A stretch of 64,000 bases of DNA from Bacillales bacterium (lineage in GTDB: Bacteria; Bacillota_I; Bacilli_A; RF39; UBA660), in assembly GCA_016288635.1 (NCBI GenBank), contig JAEEKZ010000007.1, forward strand, positions 12,649-76,648, written 5' to 3'. This document shows positions 2,164 to 38,772 of the stretch, one piece after another. Under the pieces are notes generated by a model. It was not told where the DNA came from. It was given only the letters and a program-made list of their open reading frames with translations, and made no database searches. The position numbers were made by a program, and so were the translations under genes. Positions within the stretch are counted from its first letter, which is position 1, and every line of letters starts with the position of its first letter.

Positions 2164-3765
2164 ATGATGAAATTTATAAAAAATGTATTTAATGATATTG
2201 TTGGAAAAATCAAGAAAGTATATCAAATAGCACCAGTTACTATTATTAGTATGCTTGTTCTAACAATCATTACAGTTATTTGTTTTGACAACTTTAATAA
2301 GGTAACAGATTATGTAGTTGTATTTCTTATATTTTTAACTATTGGTTCATTTTTAACGGAATCATTAAATAAGCAAAAAATTATTGGATATTCTTTATCT
2401 TCAGTAATTGCTTTGATATTTACAATATTATTTAACAAAGAAGGTGGTCCAGGTTTTTGGACTGGAATGTATGCCATATGTTATGGTAGTGTAGCTTCAA
2501 TATTAGGTGTCTATTTTAGATATAAAGCTAGTAATAAAGACTTACAAAATTATGTAACAGGAGCATTTGTAAGTATATGCAAATTATCAGTTATATATGG
2601 AGTTATATCAATTGGGGTTTTAATTATTTATTTACTTGTTAATTACTTATTATTAGAAGATTTGGATACAATTGATTTCTTAGAAAGAATAGAATTATTT
2701 ATTTTAGGGGCTTATTATGGACCTAGTATAATTTATTCTATATTTATTCCTGATAATGAAACAGAAGGATTCTTTAAGATTTTAATTAAATATGTATTAA
2801 ATATTCTTGTATTAATATACTTTGTAGTAATTTATCTATATATCATTAAGATTATATTTTCTGGTGATTTACCGTCAAATGAAATATTCTCAATTATATC
2901 ATTCTTATTTGCAGTAGGTTTACCAGTATGGACAATGGCTCAATCATATAATCAAAAGAAGTTAGTTTTCTTAGATAAAACTAATAACATAATGCCATAT
3001 TTATTTGCTCCATTTATTGGTTTGCAAACATATGCAATGATGTTAAGAGTGTTTTCTTATGGTTTAACGACTTCAAGATATTTAGGTTTAATGCTTATTG
3101 TAGTTGAAGTAGCATATATTGTTTTATATAGTCTAAAGAAAGCTGATAAGACATTCTTAGTTTTAGTTGCTATTGTTGTTGTAAGTACAATTATTCCATT
3201 TATAAATGCTAATTCTTTATCAAATTATTCTCAAAGTTTGGTAATTAAAGATTATGATATGAATGCCAATTATAGTTCAGAAGAAATGAGTCGTTTTAAA
3301 TCTGCTTATTCATATTTACTTCATAGTGAAGATGGAGTTGCATATATTAATAAATATTTAACTGCTGAAGAAAAGGCAAAGATAGAAAAATCTACTTATT
3401 ATTATGATGATTATAAAGATTTAGTATATTTACATGCTAGTCGTTCTAGTTATGGTTTAACTATTGATGTTGATGGTTATAGTAAAATGTATGAAATGAA
3501 TATAAATGGCTATGATTCAAGAGGAACTAGTATAGATAAATATTTTAAGGAAATTCAATTTAATAATGAAAGTTATAATATTTATCCTCTTGTTGAAAGA
3601 TACATTGATCATAAAGATAATTTAAACCGTTATTTTTCTGATAATTATGAATATATTGTAGACGAAAATACAAAAATAATACTTAAGAGTTTTGATTTAG
3701 ATTATAATTCTACAAATAACACTATTAGTTCAGTTTATATTGAAGGATATGTTTTAAAGAAATAA
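2164..3765 (+). CDS. Polytopic membrane protein (DUF4153-like?), function unknown
   Basis: Long ORF with many hydrophobic segments and a soluble C-terminal part. The start was moved to ATGATG after AGAGGTG. Confidence 0.6.
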   Translation: MMKFIKNVFNDIVGKIKKVYQIAPVTIISMLVLTIITVICFDNFNKVTDYVVVFLIFLTIGSFLTESLNKQKIIGYSLSSVIALIFTILFNKEGGPGFWTGMYAICYGSVASILGVYFRYKASNKDLQNYVTGAFVSICKLSVIYGVISIGVLIIYLLVNYLLLEDLDTIDFLERIELFILGAYYGPSIIYSIFIPDNETEGFFKILIKYVLNILVLIYFVVIYLYIIKIIFSGDLPSNEIFSIISFLFAVGLPVWTMAQSYNQKKLVFLDKTNNIMPYLFAPFIGLQTYAMMLRVFSYGLTTSRYLGLMLIVVEVAYIVLYSLKKADKTFLVLVAIVVVSTIIPFINANSLSNYSQSLVIKDYDMNANYSSEEMSRFKSAYSYLLHSEDGVAYINKYLTAEEKAKIEKSTYYYDDYKDLVYLHASRSSYGLTIDVDGYSKMYEMNINGYDSRGTSIDKYFKEIQFNNESYNIYPLVERYIDHKDNLNRYFSDNYEYIVDENTKIILKSFDLDYNSTNNTISSVYIEGYVLKK

Positions 3766-32379: not shown

Positions 32380-34857
32380 TTATTTTGTAACCGCAATAGC
32401 TTTATTTGAAGGCTTTAGAACTGCATCTGCTGGTAATCCATCGTTTGATGATGAACCGTTTTTTCCAACAGAAGCGCCTGCAATTATTAATTTATCATCT
32501 GCTGTAATTCCTATAATTGTCACAAAATGTCCGTTGTTACTAAACACACAAAATCCTTTTCTTTGAAGTGAAGGATTCCCATTGCATGTTAACCCGTAAT
32601 ATTCACTATATGGATTTCCATTTTGCCTATCGCCACCAGCTATTACAACGTTACCGGCAGCAAGAGTCTTTCGTATTGCTGCTATTTTATCAGATGTAGA
32701 TGTTTTGTAATTTTGCCATAACCATCCCCCACTTTGCTTTAATCCTGCATGTTCTAAAATTTTTGTGACTGATGTCCATCCTGTTTGTTCATATGTTATT
32801 CTTGTATTAGACCATGAAGCAAGATTTTGCGGAGTATTTCCACTTGTTTTTCCAAGTTTTTTTGCTGAGTTTGCTACGGCAACTAGTGAGCAGCCTGATC
32901 CACAAATTGTTTCATCTTTTCCAGCTTTATATATTCTCCATTTTATATTTTTTATAGTATCTTGGCATGAAGACCAGTATCCGCTTGAACTCTGTGATCC
33001 TAATTTTCCGCTTGTAGATGTTGGTCCTGGTGATGGTGGATCTTCTCCAGGTGGGTCTTCTCCACCAGGTGGGTTGCATACTTCATTTCCTGGCTTTGTG
33101 CTGTTTAAATAATTTGAACACATATAATACCCATTATATTTTCCGCCAGTTATTTTTACCCATCCATCTGTACAGGCTGAACTAGATGAATCATGTAATG
33201 GAGTTTTACAAACTTCTATTTCAGTTCCACAATCTAATTCGGCAATTCTTTTGCCACTTGTAGCTGGTTGTTCACGAACTCTTACTTCTTTATTATTAGT
33301 ATATTTTTTTACGCTTTCAGTACATTCTTCTTCAGTATATTCTCCGAAAAAGTCTGCACATACATAACATCCTGGCCAATAAGCATCCTTATTATCCTCT
33401 ACTTTATACCATCCTTTTTGACATTCTCCAGATGTATCTGGTTCTAGTTTATTTTCTACTTTTATTATTTCTTTAAGATGCACTTTTCTTCCGCATATTT
33501 CTGTTTGGCTTACTTTCATTTCTTTTCTTACGTTTACTTTATCTTCAATGGCTTGAATTCTAACTATGTTATGTTCTGGGTCTTCTTCTCCTTGAGTACT
33601 ACATTCCATTAGATCTCTAGCGTCTTCTTTTCCGACTGCTACGGCGACATACATATATTTAACAACATCGTGTGCATCCATGCGCCATCCATTTGTTCCG
33701 CTTCTACTTACCATAGCATTTGCAACAGTAAAAGTGTTATCTTCATATGCTGCTACTATTGTAACATAGTGCCCAAAATTGGTAAAAGTACAAGTTCCTG
33801 TATTTTCTTCACAGCCATCATCTCCTCTTTTACCGCTTGCAATTACTGCATAACCACTTGCTAAAGCTTGTTTGACATATTGGATTTTTTCATCATCATC
33901 TTTAGCTGTTGGTGCTGATGTAAAATGTTTAGGGTCATTATTATCAAATAAAGGTACTTTTTTTAAATTATAATGATCAATCATTTCTTCTGTTTTATTC
34001 CAGTCTGCATTACCTTCGAATCTAGCTATATTGTAGGTCCAATCTGCTGTTCCTTTAACTGTTGCTTCAACTTCAAGCATATGACAGGCATTAACAACTG
34101 CTAATAATGAGCATCCTGAAACTTGAACGATTTCGTCTGCAGGATTTTCTGAATGTTTCCATAAAGTGTTTGCCCATGTATCATCGTGGTCGCTCTTTTT
34201 TTGAATTTCTAAATCAGTGAATGCATCAACATCTGTCCAACCGCATCCATTAGAACATTCACAATCATTAAATAATTCGTCCAAGTTTATTCCTTCGGTA
34301 TCTGCTTCACAATGTTCAAAAAATTTAACATCATCCTCACAAATATAACCATGTACTTCACCATGTTCATATATTGATCGCATTATGAATTCTCCAAGGA
34401 ATTTTTTATTCCAATATTTTTTTGCGTCTTCTTCGTCCACAGGGTAACTTACTCTGATATATGTTGGGCATAAATGATGTTCTTCTCTTATGTCGACAAA
34501 GGCTTCTTCCTCTTCTACTTGCTTTGGATCGTTTACATCATAATTGAAGCAAAAACCTTCTGGAACTCTTGCACAGCTATATTCATATATAGTGTTGAAA
34601 AGTGGGCTGCTTTGCCAAAAGCCAATATATTCATTATAAAATGGGCAAAATAATGTTTCTTTTTCTGTAATTACAGTACTCATATCCGGCTTTGTTTGAG
34701 GGGGGTCCGCCTTTTGTGATGGACTTAATCCAAAAATTAAAATCAATAATAAAGTTATTATTACTGTTATAATTATAACCCATAATAATATTTTTGCATC
34801 TGCTGCATTTAGTTTTGATGAATCTTTATTTTTTGATTCACTACTATTGCTACTCAT
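32380..34857 (-). CDS. Membrane-anchored Cys-rich protein with two Cys/His peptidase-like (C39-like/papain-fold) domains and two SH3b-like repeats
   Basis: N-terminal TM. The pairs SGCSLLAVVNA...FGHYVTIVAA and GSGCSLVAVANS...NGHFVTIIGI are each candidate Cys/His dyads. GWYKVED... and GWVKITGGKYNGYY are SH3b-like. Linker GGEDPPGEDPPSPGP. Confidence 0.6.
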   Translation of the reverse strand: MSSNSSESKNKDSSKLNAADAKILLWVIIITVIITLLLILIFGLSPSQKADPPQTKPDMSTVITEKETLFCPFYNEYIGFWQSSPLFNTIYEYSCARVPEGFCFNYDVNDPKQVEEEEAFVDIREEHHLCPTYIRVSYPVDEEDAKKYWNKKFLGEFIMRSIYEHGEVHGYICEDDVKFFEHCEADTEGINLDELFNDCECSNGCGWTDVDAFTDLEIQKKSDHDDTWANTLWKHSENPADEIVQVSGCSLLAVVNACHMLEVEATVKGTADWTYNIARFEGNADWNKTEEMIDHYNLKKVPLFDNNDPKHFTSAPTAKDDDEKIQYVKQALASGYAVIASGKRGDDGCEENTGTCTFTNFGHYVTIVAAYEDNTFTVANAMVSRSGTNGWRMDAHDVVKYMYVAVAVGKEDARDLMECSTQGEEDPEHNIVRIQAIEDKVNVRKEMKVSQTEICGRKVHLKEIIKVENKLEPDTSGECQKGWYKVEDNKDAYWPGCYVCADFFGEYTEEECTESVKKYTNNKEVRVREQPATSGKRIAELDCGTEIEVCKTPLHDSSSSACTDGWVKITGGKYNGYYMCSNYLNSTKPGNEVCNPPGGEDPPGEDPPSPGPTSTSGKLGSQSSSGYWSSCQDTIKNIKWRIYKAGKDETICGSGCSLVAVANSAKKLGKTSGNTPQNLASWSNTRITYEQTGWTSVTKILEHAGLKQSGGWLWQNYKTSTSDKIAAIRKTLAAGNVVIAGGDRQNGNPYSEYYGLTCNGNPSLQRKGFCVFSNNGHFVTIIGITADDKLIIAGASVGKNGSSSNDGLPADAVLKPSNKAIAVTK

Positions 34858-34916: not shown

Positions 34917-35807
34917 TTATTCTTTTGGAATAATTTTTGATTTATTTTTCTTTCTTGTAAATATTCTATCTATAGCCCTACTTATAATGGAACAACTTAG
35001 TATTGAAATAAATGCTCCTTCATATGGGAATATACTATTTAGGAATATTGCTAAAAATACTAAGAAGATACAATAGAATATTTTGCCTATTCTTGTATAT
35101 GAAGAATGTTTAAAACTTGCTCCAAATATTATGAAGGCGGCAATTGTACCCGCAAAATTAATAAATATTGTTGAATCTTTTTCTATAAAATAAATTGTAA
35201 AAATGCATATTGAATATAATGATGTAGAAATAATTGCTATGCTTTTTTTATAATTTCCTGATAAACATAGTATTATAAATGTTATAAAAGCACATAATAA
35301 GCTTGTTGCAGACATTCCCCCGATACTTCTTCCCATTGCTAAGTCAACGAAGGAAAAGTCATATAAATGATTTGCTTCTTGAAGATTCCAATATGAATAA
35401 CTACCTATATAATATAGGGCTAATACAAGTATTAGTTTAATTAAACTACCTTTATTAAATTCTAATGGTATTAAATCTATAATTGGAATTAGAACTAATA
35501 ATGCAACAGAGTATTTCAATAAACTTGTTTCTGGAGGCATAAATATACCAATCGCGGTATAGTAAAATGCATCAATATTAAGTTTTAATTTTCTTTCTTT
35601 AATAAGTGAATATAGCATATATATAGCAAATGGTATTATGCAAAATAGTATTGGTCTAAATATTCCATAAAAAGGAACATATTTATTTAGATATAACAAT
35701 ACTCCATTTTTATATGTGCCATATAATACTAAAGGTATTAAACTTAATAAATATATTAGAGTAATTCGATTAATATTTTTTCTTGTATGATTAAATACTT
35801 TATTCAT
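34917..35807 (-). CDS. RnfD/NqrB-like polytopic membrane protein, cofactor motif not seen
   Basis: The N-terminal block NHTRKNINRITLIYLLSLIPL, the block GRSIGGMSATSLLCAF and the C-terminal block align with RnfD. No SGAT-type FMN-attachment motif was found. The start follows AAGGTGA. Confidence 0.6.
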   Translation of the reverse strand: MNKVFNHTRKNINRITLIYLLSLIPLVLYGTYKNGVLLYLNKYVPFYGIFRPILFCIIPFAIYMLYSLIKERKLKLNIDAFYYTAIGIFMPPETSLLKYSVALLVLIPIIDLIPLEFNKGSLIKLILVLALYYIGSYSYWNLQEANHLYDFSFVDLAMGRSIGGMSATSLLCAFITFIILCLSGNYKKSIAIISTSLYSICIFTIYFIEKDSTIFINFAGTIAAFIIFGASFKHSSYTRIGKIFYCIFLVFLAIFLNSIFPYEGAFISILSCSIISRAIDRIFTRKKNKSKIIPKE

Positions 35808-36948
35808 TTTTATCACCTTTTAAGTATTTTCTTAGGTTTATAAAACTTGGACATACATAACTGCATAAACCACAATCAATACATCTTTTGCTTGTTATTT
35901 TATGATCCATTAGTCTTTTAGGATCTATTCTCATTGGGCAAACTTCTAAGCATGCACCACAGTAAAGACATTTTTGTTCTTTAACCTCTTCTTTTTTCAT
36001 AATAAATAAAGCTTCAGTATTACCGTCGATTATTTCGTTAAATGAGGTTATTTTTGATCCGGTCATTAAACCGTTTTTAATAAATTGACTACCTGTTTCA
36101 TATTTAATTCCATTCATTAAATCTAATGCTAGTGAATATAATTTTATATCTTTTACTATTGGTGTACTAGTGTTATTACCTACAATAGTAACATATTTAG
36201 TATTAGGTTTTCTTTTATATTTCATTGCATAATAAATCTTGTATAAATCACTAGGTTTTACAACTAGAGTTCTATTCTTATCTAGTCCCATATGGGCACA
36301 TAGGAAATCTTTTCGTTCTAATAAATATAAGTCATCTAATAATTTAATTTGGATATTTGGATACATACCATTAAAGTCTATTAATGATGTTATGTTAGAT
36401 GAATCAACATTCTTAACAGTTATAAGAATTTTTGATGCTTTATAAACTTTACCTACTAAATCAAGTGTATCTAATATTTCAGCACTATTATTTATAAAGT
36501 AGAATGTTTCATTCATTATAAATGGCTCATCTACAAATAGATTTAAAATTAAAGTGTCAACTTTTCCTACAACAAATCTTTTAGATAATTGTTCATCATC
36601 AATATTGTTTAATAGTCTATTTAAATCATCTAGTTTTTTTATTTCACGAACATCAAATCTAACCTTTTTTTCTTTAAAGTTATTTTCTATTCTAATTGCT
36701 TTAATCTTCTTGTTATTATGATATAAACCTTCACATATAGATACAACTTTACCAGATATACTTGAATACAAATAAACATCGCCATTTGTAGCGACTTTTT
36801 GGCTCATAGAAACACTATCGCCAATATCCACTAAAGGTTTAAAATTTTTATGCAAAGGAATATATATATAATCTACATCATATAATTCTTTTTTTTCAGT
36901 TGGTACAACGATATCTTTTGGTTTGTCTATACGTATTAGTTTTTTCAT
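35800..36948 (-). CDS. RnfC-like protein (barrel N-domain, SLBB-like, 2x[4Fe-4S]) lacking a recognisable NADH/FMN loop
   Basis: IPLHKNFKPLVDIGDSVSMSQKVA...SISGKVVSI matches the RnfC_N pattern. LILNLFVDEPF replaces IINGAECEPY. CLYCGACLEVCP and CIDCGLCSYVCP are present. No GGAGFPT-type loop was seen. Confidence 0.6.
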   Translation of the reverse strand: MKKLIRIDKPKDIVVPTEKKELYDVDYIYIPLHKNFKPLVDIGDSVSMSQKVATNGDVYLYSSISGKVVSICEGLYHNNKKIKAIRIENNFKEKKVRFDVREIKKLDDLNRLLNNIDDEQLSKRFVVGKVDTLILNLFVDEPFIMNETFYFINNSAEILDTLDLVGKVYKASKILITVKNVDSSNITSLIDFNGMYPNIQIKLLDDLYLLERKDFLCAHMGLDKNRTLVVKPSDLYKIYYAMKYKRKPNTKYVTIVGNNTSTPIVKDIKLYSLALDLMNGIKYETGSQFIKNGLMTGSKITSFNEIIDGNTEALFIMKKEEVKEQKCLYCGACLEVCPMRIDPKRLMDHKITSKRCIDCGLCSYVCPSFINLRKYLKGDKNE

Positions 36949-36962
36949 AAATCATCAAATTA

Positions 36963-36991
36963 ATTGTATCAAAATATTACTTTTTTATCAA
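36963..36991 (-). promoter_or_regulatory. sigmaA-type promoter TTGATA-17-TACAAT for the rnfC-like operon
   Basis: On the minus strand, -35 at 36991-36986 and -10 at 36968-36963. Confidence 0.6.
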
Positions 36992-36993
36992 TT

Positions 36994-37017
36994 AAAAACC
37001 GGTTAAATAAACCGGTA
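36994..37017 (-). terminator. Intrinsic terminator of aspS
   Basis: ACCGGTT-tattt-AACCGGT followed by T5 on the minus strand. Confidence 0.75.
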
Positions 37018-37020
37018 TTT

Positions 37021-38772
37021 TTAATCTTCTTTCTTAATTATAAGTCCTAATTCTTTTAGTTGAATATCAGTAAGTTCACTTGGAGAACCCATCATTAAGT
37101 CTTGCCCACTTGCTGATGGTGGGAATGCTTGAACTTCTCTTAAGTTTGGTTCATCTTGAATTAACATAATTAATCTATCAATTCCAGGTGCCATTCCACC
37201 ATGTGGAGGACATCCATATTTAAATGATGTGAAGATTGATTTAAATCTTTGTTCTACTTCTTCCCTTCCATAACCCACTACTTCGAAGCCTTTTGCTAAA
37301 CTATCTAAGTCATGGTTTCTTATTGCACCACTAGCCATTTCGTTACCATTACATACAAAGTCAAATTGATAAGCTAGGATATCTTCTGTTTTCTTATTCT
37401 TATAATCATCAATTCCACCATGAGGTAAACTAAATGGATTATGACAGAAATCCCATTTATTTAGATATTCATCCCATTCAAACATTGGGAAGTCATTGAT
37501 TATGCATAGTTCTAGTCTATCTTTATCAATCATGTTCATATCTTCAGCAACTTTGATTCTTACTTGTCCTAATGCTGATTTTACAATTTTTTTGTTTCCA
37601 GAAATAATTAGAACTAAGTCATTATTTTCAATTTTTAATGTTTTCTTTAAGGCGATAAGTTCATCTTCTGTAACTACTTTAGCAATACTTCCAGTTATCT
37701 CTTCATTAAATTTTAAGTATGCTAAACCAGATGCTTTTTTAGATTTAGCAAAATCAGTTAAGTTATCTAAATCTTTACGAGAATATTTATCAGCACAATT
37801 CTTTGCAACAATTGCATTAATGATTCCATTTTGCTCTAGAACAGTTTTAAATACAACAAATTCACTGTTTTTGAATACATCAGTTACATCTGAAATAGTC
37901 ATATCATATCTTAAGTCTGGTTTATCTGTTCCATATAGATCAATTGCATCTCTATAAGCAATTCTTCTAAATGGTCTTGGAGATACCTTCTTATTTGAAA
38001 ATTTTGTAAATGTATCATAGAAGATTTCTTCACCAACATTAAGTATTTCATCTTCTTCAGCAAAAGACATTTCTAAGTCTAATTGATAGAATTCTAATGT
38101 ACGGTCCGCTCTAGCATCTTCATCTCTAAAGCATGGTGCTATTTGGAAATATTTTTCGAATCCACCTACCATAAGCAATTCTTTATAGATTTGAGGAGCT
38201 TGTGGTAAAGCATAGAACTTTCCTTTAAATAATCTTGATGGAACAACAAAGTCTCTTGCACCCTCTGGACTTGATGCTGTCAAAATTGGAGTTTGTACTT
38301 CAATGAATCCTAAATCATGCATTTTATTTCTTAAATAATTTAGAATTTCACTTCTTAAGAATAAGTTGTTTTTTAGTTTATTTCTTCTGATATCTAAATA
38401 TCTATATTTTAAACGAGTATCTTCTAAGGCATTAGTATTATCATCTATTGTAAATGGTAATTCATCACAAGTATTTAATACTTCTAATTCATCTACCTCT
38501 ATTTCGATATCTCCAGTAGCAATATTTTTATTTTTGCTTTCTCTTTCAGATACTTTACCAGTTACTTTTAAGACATATTCATTCTTTAAACCATTTGCTA
38601 CTTCATAGTATTTATTTTCAGGTCTAACAACAATTTGTACTATTCCGGATCTATCTCTTAGGTCAATAAATATTAAGCCACCTAAGTCTCTTTTCTTTTG
38701 TACCCATCCATACACTTCTACATTTTCACCGACATTTTTAATGTTTAATGAATTGTTCATAATTTTTTTCAT
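37021..38772 (-). CDS. aspS: Aspartyl-tRNA synthetase
   Basis: OB-fold N-terminus and class II motifs (FRDEDARADR, GGMAPGIDRL). 583 aa. Confidence 0.95.
   Translation of the reverse strand: MKKIMNNSLNIKNVGENVEVYGWVQKKRDLGGLIFIDLRDRSGIVQIVVRPENKYYEVANGLKNEYVLKVTGKVSERESKNKNIATGDIEIEVDELEVLNTCDELPFTIDDNTNALEDTRLKYRYLDIRRNKLKNNLFLRSEILNYLRNKMHDLGFIEVQTPILTASSPEGARDFVVPSRLFKGKFYALPQAPQIYKELLMVGGFEKYFQIAPCFRDEDARADRTLEFYQLDLEMSFAEEDEILNVGEEIFYDTFTKFSNKKVSPRPFRRIAYRDAIDLYGTDKPDLRYDMTISDVTDVFKNSEFVVFKTVLEQNGIINAIVAKNCADKYSRKDLDNLTDFAKSKKASGLAYLKFNEEITGSIAKVVTEDELIALKKTLKIENNDLVLIISGNKKIVKSALGQVRIKVAEDMNMIDKDRLELCIINDFPMFEWDEYLNKWDFCHNPFSLPHGGIDDYKNKKTEDILAYQFDFVCNGNEMASGAIRNHDLDSLAKGFEVVGYGREEVEQRFKSIFTSFKYGCPPHGGMAPGIDRLIMLIQDEPNLREVQAFPPSASGQDLMMGSPSELTDIQLKELGLIIKKED

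Follow-up and report, generated by a model that had tools for sequence, protein, structure and literature searches.

A stand-alone pair of RnfC and RnfD homologues predicted to lack the NADH and covalent-flavin sites of Rnf in small-genome Bacilli

The 64,000-nucleotide stretch of DNA analysed here (the window) comes from a Bacillales bacterium of the GTDB order RF39, family UBA660 (assembly GCA_016288635.1, contig JAEEKZ010000007.1, positions 12,649 to 76,648), and carries on its minus strand two overlapping genes, rnfC′ and rnfD′, whose products, C′ and D′, are true homologues of the RnfC and RnfD subunits of Rnf, a membrane redox pump of six subunits. Both proteins keep the folds of their namesakes and both genes are under strong purifying selection. 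Judged from their motifs, C′ and D′ have lost the sites for nicotinamide adenine dinucleotide (NADH), for the flavin mononucleotide (FMN) of RnfC and for the covalently bound FMN of RnfD, and two [4Fe-4S] cluster sites in C′ are predicted to be kept. We read the pair as what is left, standing alone and maintained by selection, of the RnfC-RnfD arm of an Rnf complex inherited vertically in this family, and give this reading, which includes a role as relay or sensor, a probability of roughly 55%. An earlier note, made from the sequence alone, had placed RnfC-like and RnfD-like proteins at these positions and had argued that a stand-alone degenerate pair was unlikely to be an ion-pumping ferredoxin:NAD+ oxidoreductase; the reading frames are as described, and the motif losses and missing partners documented below support the argument. 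Positions refer to the window, whose G+C content is 25-33%.

35800..36948, minus strand: rnfC′, encoding C′, a 382-residue RnfC homologue with an N-terminal barrel, a degenerate 51K-like domain, an SLBB-like region and a ferredoxin domain with two [4Fe-4S] motifs
34917..35807, minus strand: rnfD′, encoding D′, a 296-residue membrane protein of the RnfD/NqrB fold

The two genes are translationally coupled. The stop of rnfC′ and the start of rnfD′ overlap by 8 nucleotides, and the ATG at 35807, which is better placed as the start of rnfD′ than the GTG at 35816, is preceded by a GGTGA Shine-Dalgarno sequence lying inside rnfC′.

Folds and cofactor sites of C′ and D′

Several lines of evidence establish C′ as a true RnfC homologue that has kept the RnfC fold. 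Pfam models detect the RnfC_N domain (PF13375, 32 bits, cut-off 25.6) and two Fer4 motifs, the Complex1_51K model scores 24 bits, under its cut-off of 31.2, and the rnfC model TIGR01945 scores 97.2 bits against a cut-off of 245.95. A phmmer comparison aligns residues 36-378 with RnfC of Clostridium tetanomorphum (7zc6_C) at E = 5e-18. The AlphaFold2 (AF2) model built from a 20-sequence alignment has a predicted local distance difference test score (pLDDT) of 89.8, and its best Foldseek matches in the PDB are RnfC chains, with query TM-scores (TMq) of 0.80-0.84 (9eri_C, 0.84), followed by NqrA at 0.66. The SLBB-like segment reported in the earlier note has no Pfam match in the C′ of the window and is supported at the level of the fold, by the AF2 model and the Foldseek matches. 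The elements of C′ that matter for its cofactors are the following.

36736..36861, minus strand: RnfC_N barrel-sandwich segment (PF13375), residues 30-71, IPLHKNF...SISGKVVSI, with S65 and G66 invariant in 20 relatives
36562..36597, minus strand: site at which the alignments place the deletion of the canonical G(L/M)GGxxFP(T) FMN/NADH loop, residues 118-129, DEQLSKRFVVGK
36520..36552, minus strand: LILNLFVDEPF, in the alignments the degenerate counterpart of canonical (I/V)xNAxECEPY
35935..35970, minus strand: first CxxCxxCxxxCP [4Fe-4S] motif, C327-P338, invariant in 20 of 20 relatives and shared with canonical RnfC
35848..35883, minus strand: second CxxCxxCxxxCP [4Fe-4S] motif, C356-P367, invariant in 20 of 20 relatives

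The eight cysteines and two prolines of the two CxxCxxCxxxCP motifs do not vary among the 20 C′ relatives, and these motifs, together with the N-terminal barrel, stand as first described. In the phmmer alignment the GGATFPT loop of 7zc6_C lies opposite a gap in C′ and its AAECEPYL opposite NLFVDEPFI, which bears out both the earlier pairing of LILNLFVDEPF with canonical IINGAECEPY and the failure to find a GGAGFPT-type loop. All 20 outgroup RnfC proteins and five of six other RnfC proteins from the same family have the G(L/M)GGxxFP loop, and none of the 20 C′ has it; the ECEP cysteine is likewise found in 20 of 20 outgroup sequences versus 0 of 20 C′, and the GGPMMG of RnfC reads NGLMxG in C′. 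A shift of the motifs to other positions had been named as an outcome that would overturn the earlier interpretation, and profile and structure-guided alignments show that both the NADH/FMN loop of C′ and the FMN-attachment segment of D′ are deleted, not shifted. On these motifs C′ is predicted to keep both [4Fe-4S] cluster sites and to have lost the FMN/NADH site.

The evidence for D′ follows the same pattern. In the window protein PF03116 matches the C-terminal half only (32 bits, cut-off 27.7), and the sole other Pfam match, DUF1118 at E 0.15, is not credible. All 20 aligned D′ relatives match PF03116, a profile of these relatives finds RnfD (7zc6_D, E = 5.8e-19) and also NqrB (E about 1e-11), and the AF2 model (pLDDT 84.8) superposes on RnfD/NqrB in Foldseek with a TMq of about 0.7 (9eri_D, 0.71). 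D′ is thus a true RnfD homologue with the RnfD fold. Its sites were compared between 20 D′ sequences and canonical RnfD of the same family and of 30 outgroups.

35748..35807, minus strand: N-terminal cytoplasmic arm of D′, residues 1-20, from the alignment; its binding to C′ is presumed
35334..35399, minus strand: shortened five-helix linker, residues 137-158, from which the alignments show about 23 residues including the flavinylated Thr to be deleted; conserved N141, E144 and D155
35301..35333, minus strand: GRSIGGMSATS, aligned counterpart of canonical GxxPGxxGETS, Glu replaced
35085..35126, minus strand: FGASFKHSSYTRIG, aligned counterpart of canonical (F)MATDPVTSPxTxxG, with the riboflavin-binding Asp (ligand role from PMC11889175) replaced by Ser

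The segment of about 23 residues that bears the flavinylated threonine (…SS(S/A)TPL…) has its Thr in 30 of 30 outgroups, is a gap in 20 of 20 D′ and is deleted in the window protein, in agreement with the earlier statement that the FMN-attachment site is missing. The Glu of the GETS motif is present in all 30 outgroup RnfD proteins and in no D′, and is Ala in the window. Assignments of the flavin sites and riboflavin ligands of RnfD are taken from PMC11889175 and PMC9588780. The Asp of the ATDP motif, which corresponds to the riboflavin ligand D249 of Acetobacterium woodii, occurs in 30 of 30 outgroups and is acidic in 12 D′ (nine Asp and three Glu of 20); it is Ser in the window, and the D249A mutation by itself inactivates the A. 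woodii Rnf complex (PMC11889175). The Asn equivalent to the other riboflavin ligand, N123 of A. woodii, is found in 30 of 30 outgroups, is kept in 17 of 20 D′ and is kept here. The consensus of the D′ family still reads ATD..SSPY.K.G, and the loss of the F..TDP..SP block, which the earlier note described correctly for this species, appears from the alignments to be lineage-specific and not a property of the family. Taken together, these comparisons indicate that D′ lacks the covalent-FMN site and that in this species one of its two riboflavin ligands is predicted to be gone as well. In a set of 145 representatives at 50% identity, D′ is most strongly conserved at Y32, K33, N34, N118, N141, E144, D155, G159, Y186, K187 (100%) and S235-P236; it has no conserved His or Cys, and this speaks against a metal or haem site in place of the flavins.

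Selection on the pair was estimated by the Nei-Gojobori method from the window and two metagenome contigs about 85% identical to it in protein. The ratios of nonsynonymous to synonymous substitution (dN/dS) are 0.08-0.09 for C′, 0.06-0.09 for D′ and 0.03-0.04 for the neighbouring aspS; with a dS of 0.7-1.0, near saturation, these values are approximate, though far below 1. Both genes are under strong purifying selection and the pair is not decaying.

Missing partners, distribution and origin

The host genome (1.14 Mb in 63 contigs, estimated completeness 89.5%) contains no match to RnfA/E (PF02508), no ApbE (PF02424) and no second PF03116 protein, and its sole match to the RnfB model TIGR01944 is the ferredoxin domain of C′. 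The FMN_bind domain of RnfG-type proteins (PF04205) is found neither in this genome nor in 12 other pair-carrying genomes examined (0 of 13), and it was detected in all four full-Rnf relatives examined and in G008, a relative described below. A genome of the same genus (G052; 96% complete, seven contigs) likewise has no rnfA/E, FMN_bind, rnfB or apbE. Each of these searches did recover its positive controls, both among related genomes and within the control set. The genome-wide search for a complete rnf operon and an ApbE flavin transferase that the earlier note had proposed therefore turned up none of rnfG, rnfE, rnfA, rnfB or apbE in the host genome.

A pyruvate:ferredoxin oxidoreductase (PFOR) of 1120 residues is encoded in the host genome. 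An 80-residue monocluster ferredoxin with an acidic tail (Fer4_13, 45 bits) lies on another contig of the same genome (C54, about 3165-3407, plus strand) and is the likely partner of PFOR. The idea that C′ might be the only ferredoxin-type protein besides PFOR is ruled out by this small ferredoxin, which emerged from a Fer4_7 genome scan and translation. PFOR was also considered as a co-occurring partner of the pair and set aside as non-discriminating, since 194 of 201 genomes have it. A motif scan, the only search made for [FeFe]-hydrogenase, found no H-cluster motifs.

The distribution of the pair was examined in 201 genomes of the order, all but one (G001, family f2) belonging to a single GTDB family whose genomes measure 0.6-1.6 Mb. 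A D′ of about 270-330 residues is found at E <= 1e-10 in 43 of them, spread over 21 genera, in addition to the one in the window; this count is a lower bound obtained with one protein as query. RnfA plus RnfE occur in 23 of the 201 genomes and ApbE in 42, and the D′ set overlaps neither, so that none of the 43 D′-carrying genomes has rnfA/E or ApbE. Named relatives include gut metagenome-assembled genomes (MAGs) labelled "uncultured Bacilli bacterium" (Hadza, Brazilian, rabbit) and "Clostridium sp. CAG:609". A word-indexed homologue search with D′ returned five close relatives, and an alignment of five sequences retrieved 14 loci. Searched against 1.84 billion representative proteins, the D′ profile matches at least 209 clusters at 50% identity with E <= 1e-30, nearly all of them 280-305 residues long. 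Three of these are natural C′::D′ fusions of 612-705 residues (P0038, P0089, P0086), which have the domain order 51K-like, Fer4 twice, PF03116. One further D′ homologue, 36% identical, sits on a contig (L048) whose label names an uncultured Muribaculaceae MAG; this contig is probably mis-binned and derived from this Bacilli lineage.

In relatives the setting of the pair is cvpA-trxA-(yigZ)-uvrC-C′-D′-dnaG-rpoD-trmK. Contigs of 200-330 kb show the two genes together in this place, with uvrC on one side and dnaG on the other, which excludes an assembly artefact as the source of the arrangement. In the window, dnaG and rpoD again lie downstream on the same strand, after a gene for an 825-residue secreted protein and two lipoprotein-like genes. 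The neighbouring features are listed below.

37021-38772, minus strand: aspS, the gene upstream of rnfC′
36998..37016, minus strand: terminator-like hairpin closing aspS, which sets it apart from the pair
36963..36991, minus strand: promoter-like site TTGATA-17-(TG)TACAAT just 5′ of rnfC′, from a consensus scan only
32380-34857, minus strand: gene for the 825-residue Cys-rich secreted protein, directly 3′ of rnfD′, with Peptidase_C39_2 and SH3_3 matches

A dependence of the pair on adjacency to uvrC was rejected: uvrC is upstream in many relatives, and here that place is taken by aspS with its own terminator.

Relatives with a full Rnf system encode rnfC, an rnfD::rnfG fusion, rnfE, rnfA and an 89-residue mini-rnfB. 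One of them, G038, has its operon about 3 kb upstream of dnaG-rpoD, in the pair's own neighbourhood, and this shared location in a single full-Rnf relative suggests that the pair is an Rnf remnant that arose in situ. Full operons of this type are found at L028 (G022:C20, 5171-9855), L029 (G038:C3) and L030 (G146:C11), with rnfD::rnfG fusions of 470-590 residues; the fusion of G022 has two FMN_bind domains and two SGATITS motifs, and the mini-RnfB matches the N-terminal half of the RnfB model only.

Partly reduced systems also occur in the sample. G008 (L091, G008:C32, 4309-6971) has rnfC and rnfD::rnfG followed immediately by ftsK, no rnfE or rnfA in the genome, and retains ApbE and all flavin motifs; it may be a half-Rnf capable of carrying electrons from NADH to an extracytoplasmic flavin. 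In G019 (L031, G019:C9, 5572-8568), an intermediate state of decay, rnfC is canonical, rnfD lacks the G domain as well as the flavinylated Thr, a single rnfA-like gene is degenerate, and ApbE is missing. G010 carries a C/D pair without the Gly loop, the Thr or GETS that keeps ATD and GGPMxG. Phylogenetic placement of the pair, another check proposed by the earlier note, puts all D′ in a single clade within the RnfD of the family: in a maximum-likelihood tree D′ is monophyletic (SH-aLRT 100), D′ and the family's other RnfD stand apart from the 30 outgroups (SH-aLRT 99), and G010 is sister to D′ (SH-aLRT 90). The branches of D′ are 2-3 times longer than those of canonical RnfD.

Two other arrangements were seen outside this family. 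In another family of the class, at L093 (G244:C7, 3289-8372), two cytochrome bd-like genes, which look CydA/CydB-like by eye, are followed immediately by rnfD-rnfG-rnfE-rnfA, with no rnfC between. At L092 (G213:C1, 5698-6726, minus strand) a lone 343-residue PF03116-like membrane protein (42 bits) has no adjacent rnfC; this type, which differs from D′, occurs in complete genomes of 2.4-2.8 Mb from another family.

Proposed function and alternatives

On the motif evidence the pair would be unable to oxidise NADH, to reduce NAD+, to use the flavin chain of Rnf for electron transfer through the membrane or to pump ions by the Rnf mechanism. It would not be a ferredoxin:NAD+ oxidoreductase or an Rnf-type pump because the NAD(H)/FMN site of RnfC, the covalent FMN of RnfD, ApbE, the RnfG shuttle and the RnfB input are gone, as are the [2Fe-2S] and Na+ site of RnfA/E. 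The overlap of the two genes, the natural fusions and the retained N-terminal arm of D′, which in the solved Rnf complexes is buried inside RnfC (PMC9588780), lead us to infer that C′ docks on D′ through this arm, giving a membrane-anchored di-[4Fe-4S] protein. Since PFOR and the 80-residue ferredoxin are encoded in the genome, a pool of low-potential electron donors exists with which the clusters of C′ could exchange electrons, and the complex might then act as a membrane-bound iron-sulfur relay or redox sensor in which D′ would be the anchor and perhaps also a regulated element. The clusters are read as being in use because all eight cysteines are retained, whereas NqrA, which has a purely structural role, has lost its clusters (PMC12174285). 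We regard such a function, a membrane-anchored relay or sensor coupled to the ferredoxin pool, as a tentative proposal. A fuller version is more doubtful: C′D′ would be a minimal Rnf-derived membrane device, made of two subunits or, in some lineages, of a single polypeptide, probably flavin-free, whose two [4Fe-4S] clusters read or relay the redox state of ferredoxin and thereby control D′, the emptied flavin cavities of which may form a gated pore or a ligand site.

Several observations weigh against the view of the pair as a maintained arm with a relay or sensor role. The electron donor, the electron acceptor and the sensing output of C′D′ are all hypothetical, and the near-universal PFOR does not discriminate genomes with the pair from those without it. 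In about 130 of the relatives sampled there is no Rnf and no pair could be detected, and the function must therefore be dispensable in close kin. The family alignments reveal no newly gained conserved motif in C′ or D′ that would point to a new partner, and the cysteines may be conserved simply because the clusters are needed for structure. The estimates of selection come from nearly saturated synonymous sites, and long-branch attraction could inflate the grouping of the fast-evolving D′ with G010.

Alternative explanations differ mainly in what they ask of D′. In the first, which we consider unlikely, a flavin-free D′ has reverted towards the channel behaviour of the Amt/urea-transporter-like fold, and C′ serves as a cytoplasmic iron-sulfur plug or regulator of a redox-gated pore, much as GlnK does on AmtB. 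RnfD and NqrB are structurally and evolutionarily related to ammonium and urea transporters (PMC12174285, PMC9588780), and the Foldseek matches of D′ that follow RnfD/NqrB are urea transporters and AmtB, but those matches are weak (E 0.08-0.3, TMq 0.37-0.54). The most conserved residues of D′ among the 145 representatives are polar or charged (K33, N34, N118, N141, E144, D155, K187) and the lid over the FMN cavity is about 23 residues shorter, features that would suit a pore; canonical RnfD, however, is reported to be dry and non-conducting in molecular dynamics simulations (PMC11889175), and the gene neighbourhood suggests no substrate.

A second alternative retains electron transfer within the membrane. 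Here D′ would bind non-covalent riboflavin and electrons would pass from ferredoxin through the two [4Fe-4S] clusters and riboflavin to an acceptor in the membrane or at the surface, as from the riboflavin of NqrB to quinone. The Asn ligand present in the window and in 17 of 20 D′, with ligand roles taken from PMC11889175, would allow this, as would the Asp or Glu kept at the other ligand position in 12 of 20 D′ and in the basal relative G010. The same position is non-acidic in eight of 20 D′ and Ser in the window, the corresponding substitution D249A is sufficient to inactivate A. woodii Rnf (PMC11889175), the amphipathic helices at the N-terminus of NqrB that make up its quinone site (PMC12174285) are absent from D′, and no conserved His or Cys is available for another cofactor. 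We judge such a wire improbable.

The genes downstream raise a further possibility, a five-gene unit in which the secreted Cys-rich double-peptidase protein and the two lipoproteins would depend on the pair for electrons or for a membrane function. All lie on the same strand, only 59 nucleotides with no terminator-like hairpin separate rnfD′ from the 825-residue gene, and in several relatives a protein with a signal peptide comes right after D′. In most long-contig relatives, however, D′ is followed directly by dnaG-rpoD, the secreted proteins downstream vary among species without a conserved position after D′, and D′ retains no transmembrane electron carrier site, all of which makes the proposal very improbable. 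Finally, it is scarcely credible that the pair is a functionless relic in decay or that faulty assembly conceals a complete rnf operon. In favour of this view, Rnf is being lost reductively in the family, with G008, G010 and G019 as intermediates, the rate of evolution of D′ is 2-3 times that of canonical RnfD, and seven of 43 D′ matches contain one in-frame stop within the aligned span. Against it stand a dN/dS of 0.06-0.09, intact reading frames in 21 genera, eight invariant cysteines, at least 209 clusters and the natural fusions, the recurrence of the two-gene unit on contigs of 200-330 kb and the failure to find rnfA/E, FMN_bind or apbE in the 96%-complete, seven-contig sister genome.

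Relation to known systems and significance

The closest known system is the RnfC-RnfD arm of Rnf itself (7zc6, 9eri, 8ahx), of which C′ and D′ are direct homologues (TMq 0.84 and 0.71). The likeness extends to the order of the genes, with C upstream of D, to the two [4Fe-4S] motifs of C and the N-terminal arm of D, and to descent from the family's own Rnf operon. C′D′ differs from the Rnf complex in having no RnfA, RnfE, RnfG, RnfB or ApbE and, as far as the motifs tell, no FMN/NADH loop in C and no Thr segment, GETS Glu or, in this species, Asp in D. Soluble RnfC-like proteins such as PduS and PrdC share the 51K-like domain, SLBB and two [4Fe-4S] motifs with C′, which scores 32 against a cut-off of 490 with the PrdC model TIGR04481. 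PduS and PrdC keep the FMN/NADH site and are not known to have an RnfD partner, and PduS is not known to contain the RnfC_N barrel. A precedent for an RnfC-type subunit that loses its cofactors and yet stays docked on an RnfD-type subunit is the NqrA-NqrB pair of Na+-NQR (PMC12174285). NqrA lacks all cofactors including both iron-sulfur clusters, whereas C′ keeps both cluster motifs and scores 21.8 bits with the NqrA model NF003761 against a cut-off of 450; NqrB keeps a covalent FMN and a riboflavin and works in a six-subunit pump, whereas D′ has no covalent-FMN site. The two-subunit "Nqr/Rnf-like" complexes of Meheust/Huang et al. (PMC11334425) are likewise reduced and have an RnfD-like domain without the flavinylation Thr, but they combine a C-terminal PF00175 NAD-binding domain with an ApbE-flavinylated NqrC/RnfG-like partner, whereas C′D′ has no FMN_bind, ApbE or NAD domain and uses an RnfC-type iron-sulfur subunit instead. 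AmtB-GlnK offers a functional analogy only, in that a regulator caps the cytoplasmic face of a membrane protein with a related fold; C′ has no sequence relationship to GlnK, and the likeness of D′ to Amt and urea transporters is weak and confined to the fold. A description of the C′D′ pair was not found in the literature on incomplete, partial or degenerate Rnf or on RF39 together with Rnf.

These results have a practical consequence for abundant, uncultured, small-genome gut Bacilli. Annotation pipelines will call the two genes RnfC/RsxC and RnfD, and metabolic models of these organisms would wrongly gain an energy-conserving ferredoxin:NAD+ pump. If similar flavin-free C/D pairs also exist in other lineages, they would mark a recurrent outcome of Rnf reduction, and calls of "Rnf present" in the metabolic reconstructions of such genomes would be wrong. 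The pair also offers a compact experimental system, consisting of two genes or of one natural fusion. Within the family a graded series runs from the full operon through C with D::G only, C and D with a degenerate A, and a partly degenerate C/D pair to C′D′, a natural dissection of Rnf that parallels the transition from RnfC to NqrA. In this series the RnfC-RnfD sub-complex outlasts every other part of Rnf and remains under selection after all covalent-FMN and NADH sites have been lost, which points to a function of the RnfC-RnfD arm that is independent of ion pumping.

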